The notes: generated by a model not told the origin, from the letters alone. A stretch of 64,000 nucleotides of DNA from Nanobdellota archaeon (GCA_038046005.1 JBBSXB010000009.1:1-64000), one strand, 5' to 3'; shown: positions 40,265-44,394, counted from the first letter of the stretch. Translations and numbers: made by a program.

Positions 40265-41590
40265 TCACGGCTTCCATCTCGTCATTGTTCTTGGAAAAGG
40301 AATTGCATCTTTGATAGTTTCTAAACCACATATCCATGAGATAACTCTTTCTGTTCCCATTCCAAACCCACCATGAGGAATACTTCCATATCTTCTAGTA
40401 TCAAGATAAAATTCATAATTTGCAGGATCTTCACCCATATCAACAAGATTTTCTTTTATTTTTTTAATATCAGATTCCCTTTCAGAACCCCCAATAATTT
40501 CTCCATAACCTTCGGGTGCAATAAAGTCAACGCCATGAACAACTTTCTTGTCTTCGGGAGCCTCTTTCATGTAAAATGCCTTTACAATCTTTGGATAATT
40601 TGTAATCATGATAGGAACATCAAACATGGCACTCAACTTGTCTTCTTCAACTGTCCTCAAATCTTTTCCCCACTCAACATTCATGTGGGCTTTTTCTTTA
40701 AGAAGTTTCAATGCCTCAGTGTAAGTTATTCTGACAAACTTTTTCTTTATGACAGGTTCCAACTTTTTCACATCTCTCTCAAGAATTTGCAACTCTTCTT
40801 TATTTTCATCCAAAACTTTTTTAACAATATGTTTTATGAGTCCTTCTCCATAACTCAAGATATCATCGAAACTCGCCCACGCAACTTCCATCTCTGCATG
40901 CCAATATTCTGTCAAGTGTCTGGAAGTTTTTGATTTCTCGGCCCTGAATGAAGGAGCAATTGTATAAATTTTTTCCAAACTAAAAATTGCAGGTTCTGCA
41001 TACAACTGCCAAGATTGAGATAAGAAAACTCCTTTCTGTCCAAAATAGGGAATAGAAAACAATGTTGATCCCCCTTCTGACTGAACGCTCTGAAAAATAG
41101 GACTTTGATATTCATAAAATCCTTCCCCCCTAAAATAATCGTGAATAGCGCCAAACACAGTGCTTCTAATCTTTAAAATAGAAGTCATCTTCCTGCTTCT
41201 CAACCATAAATGTCTTCTATCTCCTAAAAGTTCTTCATTCAAATCTTTGTTGATTGGAAAATCCTCTGCAATCTGTATAATGTTTATTTTTTCGGCAGAA
41301 ATCTCAAATCCTGTCGGTGCTCTCTTGTCTTCTTTTATTGCTCCTTCAATCTCAACACTGCTTTCAATTTTTATTTTGTCTATCTCATCCCACTGCTTTT
41401 CAAATTTGCCCCTGTCCAAAACACACTGAATTATATCACTTGCATCTCTCAACACAAGGAATTTCATCTTGTTGCTTCCTCTCTCTCTGTGTATCCATCC
41501 ACGCACAGCTACTTTTCCGCTGCCTTTCTTCATGGCCTCTTTTATTGAAAGGAATTTTGTGGATGCCATGGTTTTACTAAACAACAACAT
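40265..41590 (-). CDS. asnS: Asparaginyl-tRNA synthetase
   Basis: FRAEKSKTSRHLTEYW, GEIIGGSERE, PHGGFGMGTER. Confidence 0.93.
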   Translation of the reverse strand: MLLFSKTMASTKFLSIKEAMKKGSGKVAVRGWIHRERGSNKMKFLVLRDASDIIQCVLDRGKFEKQWDEIDKIKIESSVEIEGAIKEDKRAPTGFEISAEKINIIQIAEDFPINKDLNEELLGDRRHLWLRSRKMTSILKIRSTVFGAIHDYFRGEGFYEYQSPIFQSVQSEGGSTLFSIPYFGQKGVFLSQSWQLYAEPAIFSLEKIYTIAPSFRAEKSKTSRHLTEYWHAEMEVAWASFDDILSYGEGLIKHIVKKVLDENKEELQILERDVKKLEPVIKKKFVRITYTEALKLLKEKAHMNVEWGKDLRTVEEDKLSAMFDVPIMITNYPKIVKAFYMKEAPEDKKVVHGVDFIAPEGYGEIIGGSERESDIKKIKENLVDMGEDPANYEFYLDTRRYGSIPHGGFGMGTERVISWICGLETIKDAIPFPRTMTRWKP

Positions 41591-41619
41591 TTTTTAAAGT
41601 TATTTGAATTACAAGAGTC

Positions 41620-42021
41620 ATGAAAAATTTTTATACCAAAATAGACAAAACGCTAAAAAAAGCTCCAAAAAGAGTTATAGGAATGTATAATAATTTGATA
41701 GCCGGAATAATAGGAGGAACTATAATTTATTACCTATTAATCTTAAAAACTCTTGAGAATATAATTCTAGGATTTTTTTATGTATTGATTCTAATGATTC
41801 TAGGATTTCTTATTTTATTGAATATTTTAAAAAATATAAGAAGCAAAAAATCAAAAAAAGATGAACTAAAAAATTATATCTGGAATGTGCTAATGGCTTT
41901 ATTAGGGGGTTTTTATTTATTACTAGTATTTAATTTAGGATTAAACAAAATTTTGTCAGGATTAATTCTTTTAGTTTTATTCATACTGATCAGTTATTTT
42001 AGAAATAAATATAACTTCTAA
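41620..42021 (+). CDS. Membrane protein (4 TM)
   Basis: Hydrophobic; its stop overlaps the TAG of the orphan aspS tail. Confidence 0.65.
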   Translation: MKNFYTKIDKTLKKAPKRVIGMYNNLIAGIIGGTIIYYLLILKTLENIILGFFYVLILMILGFLILLNILKNIRSKKSKKDELKNYIWNVLMALLGGFYLLLVFNLGLNKILSGLILLVLFILISYFRNKYNF

Positions 42022-42071
42022 GGAGTCAACCTCATTCTATCTTTAGGAAATAATGTAGCTTCTCTTATGTT
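42018..42071 (-). pseudogene. Orphan duplicate of the aspS 3' end (NIREATLFPKDRMRLTP*)
   Basis: 15 of 17 aa identical to the aspS C-terminus NIREATLFPRDRNRLTP at 43114-43167. Confidence 0.9.
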
Positions 42072-42919
42072 AAACCTTTCTTAACTAGAAACTCCTTAAG
42101 AATTTTTTGTTTTCTGTCTATTGTAAAACCAACTAGCGAATAAAACAATAAAATAGAATTCTTATCATGAATCCTTAAAACATATTTTTGAGAAGTGTTT
42201 GGTCTTAAATCCTTCTTTTTTATTATAGTAGATCTTATCTTCAAAAAAGAAAGCAAATCTTGAACCTCTTTTAAGCCACCAAAATTCATAGAAACTGCTC
42301 CAACTCTACCAATCTTTCTGTCTATTTCACCCTCAGAGTCAAAGAAACCCATTATGAAAGAGGATTTTATATTGCCATCACTAGTTTTGATAATTTCTGG
42401 AACTTTCCATTTATCTTTACCAAAATTTCCAAATTCTAAGATAAAATCACAAGCTTCTTTAGAACACAATCTGGTCACATATTGATCGCGCCAATTACTA
42501 TTCCTTGATTTTCTGAATTCTGTAGTTGGATTTATTTTAAAGTAATTTCTTAAAACATTTCTAAACTTATCAACAAACTCTTTATCAGTAGCTGATAAAA
42601 CAATATGGTATCTTCTTAATTTTTTATTGCAGCTAATGCACCCATCTCCACATAAAACTCCAAAAATATAAGATAAGTCTTCACTTATTATTAAATCACT
42701 AGGAATATTATGTTTCTTTATTTTGATTCTTCCAGATTTAACACCTTCTTTTGCAGCCGAACTCTTGTTTCTTCTTTCAATGTTTAGTCTTTTCATATGA
42801 TGGAGAATTGTAGAGTGTTGAATGTTAAACCTTTTAGCAATTTCCCAAGTTGACAAACCAGAGCCATATAAAGAAGAAATAGACAGAATATTACTATTTG
42901 TTAACTTTCTTGTTACCAT
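42065..42919 (-). CDS. Free-standing LAGLIDADG homing endonuclease with N-terminal HTH
   Basis: Two motifs, YIFGVLCGDGCI and FIMGFFDSEGEI; C-terminal VGFTIDRKQ; HTH LSTWEIAKRFNI; no intein splicing motifs. Confidence 0.9.
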   Translation of the reverse strand: MVTRKLTNSNILSISSLYGSGLSTWEIAKRFNIQHSTILHHMKRLNIERRNKSSAAKEGVKSGRIKIKKHNIPSDLIISEDLSYIFGVLCGDGCISCNKKLRRYHIVLSATDKEFVDKFRNVLRNYFKINPTTEFRKSRNSNWRDQYVTRLCSKEACDFILEFGNFGKDKWKVPEIIKTSDGNIKSSFIMGFFDSEGEIDRKIGRVGAVSMNFGGLKEVQDLLSFLKIRSTIIKKKDLRPNTSQKYVLRIHDKNSILLFYSLVGFTIDRKQKILKEFLVKKGLT

Positions 42920-43046
42920 CTTTTTTTATAGTTATTTCAACTAGCTCTCCTTTCTTCAATTTGAATTTTTCTATAATAGAATAAGGAATTGTTACAACAA
43001 TAGCATTTCCAGTTTTCCACAATTTAGCATCGAATTGTCTCTTCAT
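42894..43046 (-). CDS. 50-aa AbrB/MazE/SpoVT-family DNA-binding protein
   Basis: Read by hand: MKRQFDAKLWKTGNAIVVTIPYSIIEKFKLKKGELVEITIKKDGNKKVNK*; overlaps the endonuclease start. Confidence 0.85.
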   Translation of the reverse strand: MKRQFDAKLWKTGNAIVVTIPYSIIEKFKLKKGELVEITIKKDGNKKVNK

Positions 43047-43048
43047 TT

Positions 43049-43069
43049 TGTATTTACAATGTAAATACA
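43049..43069. promoter_or_regulatory. Perfect palindromic operator TGTATTTACA-A-TGTAAATACA
   Basis: 10-bp inverted repeat between a TTTATATA box (~43076-43083, minus strand) and the AbrB ATG. Confidence 0.7.
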
Positions 43070-43113
43070 TAGAGATATATAAAGTTTAATATTATCTAAA
43101 AAGTAGTTAATAA

Positions 43114-44394
43114 TTAAGGAGTTAATCTATTTCTATCACGAGGAAAAAGAGTTGCCTCACGAATGTTAGGAAGACTCAGCATAGTTTGCGTCAAACGCTC
43201 TAAACCTATTGACCATCCACTGTGAATAGGACTACCATACCTGAAAGAATCAATATACCATTTGAAATTTTCTGGCTTCAAACCTTTTGCCTTCAGATTT
43301 TTTATCAAAATATCAGGAACATGAATTCTTTGTCCACCAGAAGAAATTTCTATTCCCCCATAAAGTGCATCAAATCCTCCAGAAACTCCAGTCTTCTCAT
43401 CTTTAGGCCAAATATAAAAAGGTTTTATCTTAGAAGGCCACTCATATGTAAAAACAATGCAGTTAGGGAACAACCCACAAAGTTTTCTCTCGGCTTCAGG
43501 CTCAAAATCATCTCCATCTTTCATTTTTATTCCATGTTTGTTCATCAAATCCAAAGCTTCTTTATATTTCAAATATTTAACATCAGGAACTTTTAATTTA
43601 ACTCCTAACAAATCCAGCTCAGTTTTGCATGTATCAATAACTTTCTTAAAGATATATTTAACAACTTCTTCAAGATGTTTCATAATCCCAATGTCATCCT
43701 CAAAAGCCATTTCAATATCCATTTGTCTTATCTCATTGATGTGCTTTGAAGTATCGTGCTTCTCAGCCCTCCAAACGGGAGTTATAAGAAAAACTCTTTC
43801 CATTGAAATTGCCATAAGCTGTTTGTATAATTGGGGGCTTTGAGCAAGATAAGCAGGCTTGTCAAAATAATTTATCTTAAACAAATCGGTTCCCCCTTCT
43901 GTTGAAGTTCCAATAATTGCGGGAGTTTGTATCTCTATAAAATTTTTGTTTGCAAAAAATTCTCTGAATGAATTTGCGATCACAGATTGAATCTTGAAAA
44001 TTGCCATCACTTTCGGTTTTCTGACATCTAAGCTCCTATAATCAAGCCTTGAAGGCAGTTCAGCACTGACAGCTTTTTCATTGACTTGTATTGGTAATTT
44101 TTCAGCCTTGGCCAAAACAACTAAATTTTCAACTTCAACTTCAGCGTCTTTCCTTGCCAAATCATTTTTGACATCAGCTTTCTTTACTTTTCCCTGAATC
44201 TCAATAACACTTTCCAAAGTAAGTGAAGGAATCTCTTTCAGGATTTTTTCATCTTTTATAATACACTGCACAATTCCAGAATTATCTCTTAAAAGGATAA
44301 ATGCCATCTTTGACATGATTCTAAGCTCATGACACCATCCCTTCAACAAAACTTCCTGCCCTATTTTTACTTCCTTGATAAAAGAGCGTTGCAT
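43114..44394 (-). CDS. aspS: Archaeal-type aspartyl-tRNA synthetase
   Basis: AYLAQSPQLYKQ, WRAEKH, EISSGGQRIH, GLER, FPRD. Confidence 0.95.
   Translation of the reverse strand: MQRSFIKEVKIGQEVLLKGWCHELRIMSKMAFILLRDNSGIVQCIIKDEKILKEIPSLTLESVIEIQGKVKKADVKNDLARKDAEVEVENLVVLAKAEKLPIQVNEKAVSAELPSRLDYRSLDVRKPKVMAIFKIQSVIANSFREFFANKNFIEIQTPAIIGTSTEGGTDLFKINYFDKPAYLAQSPQLYKQLMAISMERVFLITPVWRAEKHDTSKHINEIRQMDIEMAFEDDIGIMKHLEEVVKYIFKKVIDTCKTELDLLGVKLKVPDVKYLKYKEALDLMNKHGIKMKDGDDFEPEAERKLCGLFPNCIVFTYEWPSKIKPFYIWPKDEKTGVSGGFDALYGGIEISSGGQRIHVPDILIKNLKAKGLKPENFKWYIDSFRYGSPIHSGWSIGLERLTQTMLSLPNIREATLFPRDRNRLTP

Follow-up and report, generated by a model that had tools for sequence, protein, structure and literature searches.

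How does the gene of a LAGLIDADG homing endonuclease come to lie downstream of a synthetase gene, and why is it followed by a second copy of that gene's end? This question is raised by a locus in a 64,000-nucleotide stretch of DNA from a Nanobdellota archaeon (GCA_038046005.1, JBBSXB010000009.1:1-64000), hereafter the window; coordinates given without a locus or genome number are positions in this whole stretch, and compared genomes and loci carry numbers preceded by G and L, respectively. The synthetase gene, aspS (43114-44394, minus strand, 426 amino acids), matches the NCBIfam model NF003483, aspartate-tRNA(Asn) ligase, with 503 bits against a cut-off of 353, and its C-terminal end (43114-43167) reads NIREATLFPRDRNRLTP up to the stop codon. 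It is followed on the same strand by a TATA box, a palindrome, a small abrB-type gene and the endonuclease gene, whose TAA stop codon (42065-42067) falls inside an orphan copy of the last 17 aspS codons and stop (42018-42071, minus strand, reading NIREATLFPKDRMRLTP). We conclude that this element is quite probably a homing cassette that replaces the end of aspS, without intron or intein.

A sequence-only reading of the window had already proposed a mobile LAGLIDADG cassette at the aspS 3′ end that supplies a re-coded gene end, and this is supported by an empty site in a relative, the recurrence of the cassette, conflict between gene trees and the divergence of the aspS end. Every feature was found where that reading had placed it when coordinates, open reading frames (ORFs) and family matches were rechecked. 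The two copies of the gene end do match at 15 of 17 residues while being heavily recoded (38 of 54 bases identical), and the stop codon of the orphan does interlock with that of a convergent neighbour (41620-42021, plus strand).

The empty site and the replaced end of aspS

Relatives with an empty aspS locus, as the cassette interpretation foresaw, do exist. In G001, a genome of the same genus whose aspS is 92% identical in protein to that of the window, the DNA aligns on both sides of the cassette, with 84.7% identity over aspS and 87.1% over asnS (from 41560 onward). G001 is without everything that lies between the two genes in the window, including an extra segment beyond the orphan, and its aspS TGA overlaps the asnS ATG. 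In G024 and G005, aspS likewise abuts asnS, with 1-3 bases between them. The asnS gene (40265-41569, minus strand; NCBIfam asparagine-tRNA ligase, 489.5 bits) is the native downstream neighbour of aspS. No endonuclease relative was found in G001, whose genome is 88% complete, and a search across 300 further genomes of the order turned up none above 36% identity. Two of the four runs examined, one per study (X1 and X5), contain a contig about 87% identical to the window that joins 41560 to 43235 with 126 other letters in between; it is an empty-site relative living alongside the carrier. The 27 relatives that we counted as empty include three with fewer than 250 bases after aspS (L006, L015, L022), of which L006 shows asnS directly, and the emptiness of L015 and L022 is not certain. 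The fragment of an aspS tail seen in G035 proved to be the end of a contig.

The comparison with G001 also reveals where the foreign part of aspS begins. The two genes mismatch at 13.6% of bases 1-1158 (157/1158) and at 34.2% of bases 1159-1278, and the best breakpoint is aspS base 1158, or window position 43236 (Fisher 8e-8 before correction for scanning). The alignment of the empty relative's contig ends at the same place, at 43235. Codons 1 to about 386 (43237-44394, minus strand) form the native part of the gene, with DNA 86.4% identical to G001, and the remaining stretch of about 40 codons and the stop (43114-43236, minus strand), which takes in motif 3 and the 17-codon tail, is of a foreign, re-coded type associated with the cassette. 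Over these last 123 bases, the window is 78% and 72% identical to the carriers L067 and L072 and 59-66% identical to the empty loci L005-L007; for G001 the pattern is reversed (59% and 63% to the same carriers, 74-75% to the same empty loci). Upstream of this stretch, all comparisons of the window and G001 with carriers and empty loci fall at 68-73%.

The same jump is found throughout the window's aspS clade. Divergence over the last 41 codons exceeds that over the 209 codons upstream of them in all seven carrier-versus-empty pairs (ratios 1.19-2.52; p<0.05 in six of them) and in three of eight empty-versus-empty pairs (ratios 0.67-1.44). When 12 carriers are compared with the consensus of 22 empty loci, the excess mismatch starts at about codon 385-389 and peaks at Pro389, Ser395, Arg400, 416, Arg419, Arg423 and 424.

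Most of the changes are synonymous and alter the codon as far as possible, as when AGC becomes TCA or AGA becomes CGT. CGT is indeed rare, as the sequence-only reading had supposed from the window: across the genome, 476 long ORFs contain 6,976 Arg codons, of which 178 (2.6%) are CGT and 70% are AGA. The aspS gene has three CGT codons in all, at positions 400, 412 and 419, inside the replaced stretch. Across loci, CGN codons make up 49 of 102 Arg codons in the 17-codon tails expressed by carriers, 20 of 95 in empty tails and 8 of 52 in orphans; the corresponding counts over the last 45 codons, for aspS genes at least 50% identical to that of the window, are 46/88 versus 21/129 (summed by hand). 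Three aspS ends counted as empty (L012, L013 and L015, from G034, G019 and G012) are also CGN-rich, with 4/6, 3/5 and 3/5 Arg codons of this type. They may be footprints of lost cassettes, the emptiness of L015, which has 145 bases after aspS, not being established.

The longest orphans begin at codon 389-391 in three separate lineages (L151, L095, L099). Together, the breakpoint, the excess divergence, the CGT codons and these orphan starts suggest that insertion and cutting probably occur near codons 386-391, where the stretch encoding class II motif 3 begins. The proposal that the C-terminus of aspS had been replaced therefore stands, given the divergence jump and the CGT codons, and what changes is its extent: the replaced stretch predicted from these comparisons is about 40 codons from about 43236, and the 17 codons first proposed are what remains of the orphan in the window. 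A left junction at codon 415|416 was also considered, since the identity between the window and L072 is 61% up to that point and only 1 of the next 64 bases differs. Measured against G001, the foreign tract sets in earlier, at about codon 386, and we therefore read the junction with L072 as the trace of a secondary exchange among cassettes. The stretch concerned (43085-43148, 63/64 bases identical to L072) comprises the last 12 aspS codons and 28 bases of spacer, and its flanks are only 61-87% identical between the two loci; this likeness could stem from a recent exchange or from strong constraint on an element located there, for instance a terminator.

The orphan itself is not a chance match, since in a tblastn search of the whole genome with the last 45 aspS residues it was the sole match (E 1.5e-5) outside synthetase-type genes, the others being aspS and two paralogous synthetase-type gene ends. 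A repeat search of the window also reports the pair of copies, at 72% and with the register shifted by one base. The sequence-only reading took the orphan for the original end of aspS, to be matched by the 3′ end of empty alleles, and this holds for part of it. The orphan shares with the empty allele of G001 an otherwise unusual Met422 and a 14-base run, AGAATGAGGTTGAC, and over the last 36 bases it agrees with G001 at 27 positions, where the expressed tail agrees at 22. Over the first 18 bases the counts are 11 and 16, respectively, so that the whole 54 bases end in a tie. Its 3′ two-thirds thus look native and its first third does not, and we read the orphan as a remnant of the native end whose 5′ part was either carried by the element or has drifted, a stretch of this size being too short for certainty.

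Orphan tails are seen in 28 other loci. That of the window carries Lys in place of an Arg common to all 27 empty tails, that of L108 has an in-frame stop and L082 retains a degenerate copy. In-frame fusion of endonuclease and orphan occurs in 13 of the 17 loci checked, and for 14 of the 32 endonucleases aligned, the C-terminus is an aspS tail read in frame, of the form FPRDRDRLTP. We rejected the idea that this fusion preserves translational coupling to asnS: a gene starts at the stop of the orphan in only one of the 13 fused loci (L067).

The endonuclease and the spread of its family

The endonuclease gene (42065-42919, minus strand) encodes 284 amino acids that match Pfam LAGLIDADG_3 in two stretches (59.5 bits). 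An N-terminal HTH_38 match is below the cut-off (24 versus 27 bits), and the first 50 residues resemble a solved helix-turn-helix (HTH) repeat protein (2lvs). The motifs GVLCGDGC and GFFDSEGE align with both motifs of PI-PfuI; among 32 relatives, D92 of the first (GDG) is invariant and E196 of the second (SEG) is kept in at least 90%. In LAGLIDADG enzymes, the acidic residues at the motif ends are the catalytic ones. The structural model (pLDDT 92.1) has the alpha-beta-beta-alpha-beta-beta-alpha LAGLIDADG fold, and Foldseek retrieved I-DmoI (template modelling score 0.72-0.76 by target), PI-PfuI (E 1.7e-10) and the TliVMA intein endonuclease. PADLOC and PHROGs returned only "homing endonuclease" or "endonuclease". 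The predicted fold and the two acidic motif residues suggest that the protein is competent as a nuclease. In L088, the endonuclease copy is frameshifted. A second intact LAGLIDADG ORF of 234 amino acids, 27% identical, is present on contig C7 of G000 (L002, 1262-2004), where its 3′ end overlaps the end of a tRNA-Leu gene.

When 5.8 billion proteins were searched, the endonuclease retrieved 57 relatives at 42-77% identity, and scanning metagenome and genome contigs yielded 117 loci. Relatives of the cassette occur in genomes labelled Nanoarchaeota and Woesearchaeota, and one carrier is labelled Hadesarchaea (L151); its orphan of 38 codons has 66% DNA identity and about 82% protein identity to the expressed end. 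We assessed fidelity to the site in the 43 other loci with an endonuclease match of more than 240 residues. An aspS 3′ end lies directly upstream on the same strand in 32 of them, and in five more the cassette is inverted, still between the aspS end and the orphan (L095, L096, L102, L104, L152), which brings to 37 the full-length relatives found at an aspS 3′ end. Two others are cut by a contig end but keep the orphan (L073, L079), and four have no aspS end (L105 = L153, L106 = L107). The aspS genes of the carriers are only 30-73% identical to that of the window, and the association with aspS vanishes below about 34% identity. At the protein level, the end of a neighbouring gene is duplicated beside the LAGLIDADG gene in 17 of 98 loci.

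The phylogenies point to a cassette that is spreading horizontally. In the aspS tree (58 rows, of which L112, really an asnS gene, was wrongly labelled empty), carriers and empty loci are interleaved, the window being sister to the empty G001, and the starred branches force at least nine changes. In the endonuclease tree, a starred clade of six (98) joins loci with very different aspS genes, 53-100% identical to that of the window where the gene is full; for L070, with a partial gene, the value is 32%. For each of two aspS clades, the constraint that its hosts group together in the endonuclease tree was rejected by the approximately unbiased (AU) test (p-AU 0.0023 and 1.8e-52). A further AU test holding the window, L067 and L072 together (p 0.043) was set aside as poorly posed, because L066, whose aspS is cut off, nests among the three.

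More distant members were found beside other genes. In L039 (1110-1190) and L038 (1116-1181), from G152 and G269, an HTH-LAGLIDADG gene 31-36% identical to that of the window lies directly before an Lhr-like helicase gene, and upstream of the endonuclease is an orphan of the helicase's first 23-28 residues (tblastn E 4.5e-5 for L039 and 0.065 for L038), a mirror image of the aspS case at a 5′ gene end. A tblastn search found no such orphan in L037 or L041. In L111 (574-2717), a 38%-identical endonuclease follows a MinD/ParA-like ATPase gene that ends in VRETTKRLIRALTGRQIR, and an orphan reading LKETTSRLIRALTGRRV (E 3e-5) comes after the endonuclease, which gives the architecture of the aspS locus on another gene.

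The abrB gene, its promoter and the downstream slot

The first gene of the cassette (42894-43046, minus strand) encodes 50 amino acids, counted from a start codon common to 22 related loci, and its 3′ end overlaps the start of the endonuclease gene by 26 bases (23-29 bases in 15 other loci measured). Its product matches Pfam PF04014 by a narrow margin (26.7 bits versus a cut-off of 24.7), MazE_antitoxin being the best Pfam family, and reaches 15.9 bits with the NCBIfam AbrB domain, below the cut-off of 28.3. The 22 orthologues are 45-51 amino acids long with a mean column identity of 79%, and AbrB is the best-conserved part of the cassette (65-80% identity versus 55-72% for the endonuclease). 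It is present in 20 of 24 rows of the core clade and absent from all rows outside it except L096. Pairs of AbrB and LAGLIDADG genes flanked by duplicated gene tails, which the sequence-only reading had anticipated, are thus found repeatedly. Structural modelling added little: SpoVT/AbrB (MazE N-terminal) domains form swapped-hairpin dimers, the AbrB monomer model is poor (pLDDT 75, no strands), and a predicted complex of the endonuclease with two AbrB copies scored 0.00, which is informative neither way. At the position of abrB, two sister loci, L090 (3653-3970) and L150 (3692-3991), have unrelated ORFs of 105 and 99 amino acids that belong to no Pfam family.

Of special interest is the region between aspS and abrB. 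The stop codon of aspS is followed by a spacer of about 30 bases that varies among loci, and then by a TATA box (43083-43076, minus strand, TTTATATA) 29 bases before the abrB ATG and by a perfect palindrome with arms of 9 nucleotides around one central base (43068-43050, minus strand, GTATTTACA-T-TGTAAATAC). Across 19 aligned cassette loci, the sequence directly after the aspS stop differs in content and length, and conservation begins at the TATA box with the layout TTTATATA, 6-7 bases, GTATTTACA(A/T)TGTAAATAC, 1-4 bases and the abrB ATG. The TATA box is kept in nearly all of these loci, L072 having TTTGTATA instead, and the palindrome is kept in all 19 with at most 1-2 base changes, always between the TATA box and the abrB start. 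It is unique in the genome of 874,611 bases at up to 3 mismatches.

The spacing between TATA box and start codon implies a leaderless or nearly leaderless transcript. In archaeal promoters, a protein bound between the TATA box and the start would block initiation. Because a conserved palindrome lies at the promoter of abrB itself and AbrB is so well conserved, we favor autorepression by AbrB, with the palindrome as its putative operator.

Downstream of the orphan, an extra segment of 447 bases (41571-42017, plus strand) holds the convergent ORF already mentioned (41620-42021), which encodes a membrane-type protein of 133 amino acids and whose stop overlaps that of the orphan. This ORF has no Pfam, PHROG or PADLOC match and was not found when G001, G024, G021 and G005 were queried with it; the segment is probably a separate insertion. 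The slot between aspS and asnS holds other small ORFs in G021 and G040 and different genes in other loci, and the cargo after the orphan differs from locus to locus. In L066 (1253-1847), for example, a VapB-like ORF of 71 amino acids and a PIN-domain-like ORF of 125 amino acids, both named by eye, lie between the orphan tail and asnS. The archaeal gatE gene adjoins the locus in the window. The host genome has 33% G+C and is present in groundwater metagenomes.

A proposed mechanism, alternatives and known counterparts

We propose the following mechanism for the homing of the cassette. The endonuclease would cut an unoccupied aspS in the conserved stretch from motif 3 to the C-terminus, probably near codons 386-391, and the break in this single-copy essential gene would be repaired from a cassette-bearing copy. 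Such repair would write in the re-coded end, restoring aspS, together with the cassette; the native end would be pushed downstream as the orphan, which could double as the right-hand homology arm. Synonymous re-coding (AGA to CGT, AGC to TCA) would protect the occupied allele from renewed cutting and would also make the two copies less prone to recombine. With AbrB on the palindrome, between TATA box and start codon, endonuclease expression would stay low in carriers, and the same circuit would permit a burst of endonuclease in a naive cell. Cleavage, its exact site, the immunity of the re-coded copy and repression by AbrB are what we infer from the sequences.

Several observations weigh against so simple a scheme. 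Some of them come from a second aspS clade, about 40% identical to the window's (L075, L077, L081, L086, L089, L146, L148). The expressed aspS end in this clade is not significantly over-diverged from L031, its sole empty relative (ratios 0.92-1.33), it is host-typical (ending in LLPRDVERVTP) and it is hardly re-coded, with 0-2 CGN among the 5-6 Arg codons of the last 45 codons. It is the orphan, fused to the endonuclease, that is of the foreign type FPRDRDRLTP. In these loci, the cassette seems to have been placed after an intact native end, and the moving unit seems to comprise the promoter, abrB and the endonuclease with a fossil tail. In L069 (2475-3731) and L080 (219-1620), the upstream gene is a short bacterial-type AspRS of about 460 amino acids with its own C-terminus, and an archaeal-type orphan tail still follows the endonuclease; these may be cases in which the whole synthetase gene was replaced. 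Either the cassette does not enter in one uniform way, or the traces of older invasions have been overwritten. In the window's own clade, G001 is the sole empty relative close enough for mapping at the level of bases, and over 54 bases it matches both copies equally (39/54 each). No empty allele at least 99% identical was found in the contigs of the source samples, which cannot show rare variants. Orphans are not clearly decaying, a change at an invariant position being found in 5 of 22, compared with 4 of 35 expressed tails. Lastly, the groups constrained in the AU tests were taken from the aspS tree, and we already knew the endonuclease tree when we named them.

The architecture also brings to mind an addiction module, in which AbrB would act as a MazE-type antitoxin neutralizing an endonuclease toxin, and the pair would persist by post-segregational killing and not, or not only, by homing. 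Besides the Pfam assignment to MazE_antitoxin, there is a weak NCBIfam match to a doc-partner antidote (22.4 bits versus a cut-off of 55.9), and a small first gene overlapping a nuclease gene is common in toxin-antitoxin operons. MazE, however, usually has a C-terminal extension that binds the toxin, and AbrB, at 48-51 amino acids, is the DNA-binding domain alone. The conserved palindrome sits exactly at abrB's own promoter, AbrB is missing from four of the 24 core-clade cassettes and from nearly all others, and addiction leaves both the fidelity to one site and the duplicated gene end unexplained; we regard it as improbable. Slightly less probable still is a domesticated pair of regulators, WhiA-like and AbrB, that would control aspS and asnS, be inherited vertically and often lost, with the tail as a relic of one rearrangement. 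The combination of HTH and LAGLIDADG does recall WhiA (Foldseek rank 43, E 1.9e-7), the cassette lies between two synthetase genes that are otherwise translationally coupled, and nearly all sampled loci of one aspS clade carry it. Yet both acidic active-site residues are kept, the endonuclease tree conflicts with that of aspS, the cassette is absent from G001 of the same genus and, above 36% identity, was not found in the 300 other genomes searched within the order, both orientations relative to aspS occur and the copy in L088 is frameshifted.

A different kind of mobile cassette, placed by illegitimate recombination or captured at a variable slot, with an endonuclease that promotes recombination non-specifically, would fit the unrelated small genes at the aspS-asnS junction of other lineages and the apparently native aspS end of the second clade. 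Against this, the tie is to the end of aspS and not to asnS, which tblastn found after the cassette only in the window, L066 and L067; aspS-derived orphans accompany the endonuclease in 28 other loci, and the expressed end is replaced in the window's clade, so we consider such placement very unlikely. Hardly credible is an intron-like cassette (group I, group II or bulge-helix-bulge) that would be spliced from the aspS transcript to join the gene body to the orphan. LAGLIDADG genes do usually reside in introns or inteins, and invariant residues are kept in 17 of 22 orphan tails. But the upstream copy is complete with its own stop codon, no Rfam family is matched by 41500-43400 even at E up to 1, the two junctions are not linked by any inverted repeat and the cassette has a conserved promoter of its own; some orphans are dead (the stop in L108, the degenerate copy in L082 and the R to K change at an invariant Arg in the window) and inverted cassettes exist. 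Intein features were also absent from the locus: aspS ends in a stop, and abrB and the endonuclease are separate ORFs with their own starts. We therefore retain the interpretation of a homing cassette that replaces the aspS end.

The sequence-only reading took such a cassette for its best candidate for an undescribed system, but the principle is already known from mobile ORFs (mORFs) of fungal mitochondria (PMC3630166). There, mORF "gene hybrids" are described for atp6 of Allomyces macrogynus and for atp6, atp9, cox2 and nad3 of Glomus (PMC3630166), and C-terminal duplications of cob and atp6 flanked by endonuclease ORFs are described for Endoconidiophora (PMC6279837). In these hybrids, and at aspS as we read the locus, an endonuclease ORF brings along a foreign C-terminal coding part that continues the resident gene in frame, while the native C-terminus persists as an orphan further downstream; the inserted end diverges more in DNA than in protein and close relatives lack the element (PMC3630166). 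Over-divergence of the inserted in-frame end is found in the window's clade (34.2% versus 13.6%; 7/7 pairs) and not in the second clade. In mORF hybrids the downstream copy is also the one closer to relatives; at aspS, the short orphan is closer to G001 in its last 36 bases and equally close over all 54. In contrast to mORFs, the aspS cassette is on an archaeal chromosome and not in an organelle genome, its target is an aminoacyl-tRNA synthetase (aaRS) gene, it has its own promoter, a dedicated AbrB-type gene and a conserved putative operator, its endonuclease has an extra N-terminal HTH, and its family spans hosts whose aspS is as distant as reported above. We judge that the principle is known from fungal mitochondria and that what is new is the archaeal chromosome and the dedicated, putative repressor.

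Other free-standing homing endonucleases offer partial parallels. Those of T4-like phages (seg, mob) have neither intron nor intein and spread by "intronless homing", in which repair of a double-strand break co-converts flanking markers. Their nucleases are of GIY-YIG, HNH or other types, their genes lie between other genes and do not replace a gene end, and we know of no repressor gene that accompanies them. I-DmoI (from an rRNA intron), PI-PfuI and the TliVMA intein endonuclease have the same two-domain monomeric fold, judging from our model, and the same motif residues; they differ in that they sit in an intron or intein removed at the RNA or protein level, whereas the host gene of the aspS cassette would be repaired at the DNA level by a duplicated, re-coded end. 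WhiA also combines a LAGLIDADG scaffold with an HTH domain, but there the HTH is C-terminal and the catalytic residues are lost, unlike the N-terminal HTH and the two retained acidic residues of the aspS-cassette endonuclease. F-CphI of a cyanophage is reported as a further free-standing homing endonuclease (PMC6083498). An engineered design follows a parallel logic: HomeR drives are reported likewise to aim a nuclease at an essential gene and to carry a re-coded functional replacement aboard (PMC7968924); they are synthetic, use Cas9 and operate in diploid animals, whereas the aspS cassette is natural, would rely on recognition by a protein and resides in a haploid archaeon. In our literature searches, which did not cover supplementary files, no paper came up that connects homing endonucleases with aspS, DPANN archaea or AbrB.

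These comparisons lead to a broader and more tentative view, in which the cassettes are natural "home-and-rescue" drives that force their own uptake across deep lineages, re-target gene ends and drive mosaicism of aaRS genes; taken jointly, we hold these propositions to be possible but doubtful. Uptake would be forced by breaking an essential gene and carrying the only functional end that is proof against cutting. The spread is wide, since cassettes are present in Nanoarchaeota, Woesearchaeota and one Hadesarchaea-labelled genome, and the family appears to re-target other gene ends, a MinD-like ATPase gene at its 3′ end (L111) and an Lhr-like helicase gene at its 5′ end (L039, L038). If this view is correct, the cassettes would overwrite parts of synthetases or whole genes with foreign sequence, as the bacterial-type AspRS of L069 and L080 may illustrate, and would be a motor of aaRS mosaicism in small-genome archaea.

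If the cassette replaces the aspS end as concluded above, the bring-your-own-gene-end strategy of fungal mitochondria operates also on cellular archaeal chromosomes, in an essential gene of translation, and a LAGLIDADG gene can therefore inhabit a protein-coding gene without an intron or intein. The cassette would be a natural and widespread counterpart of engineered home-and-rescue designs, with a built-in putative repressor circuit. Foreign gene ends, orphan tails and endonuclease ORFs that run into aspS sequence could mislead phylogenies and annotation, and the endonuclease family may supply new long-site nucleases whose predicted target is a conserved coding motif. The cassettes would also provide a concrete mechanism for the local foreign patches at the 3′ ends of synthetase genes.

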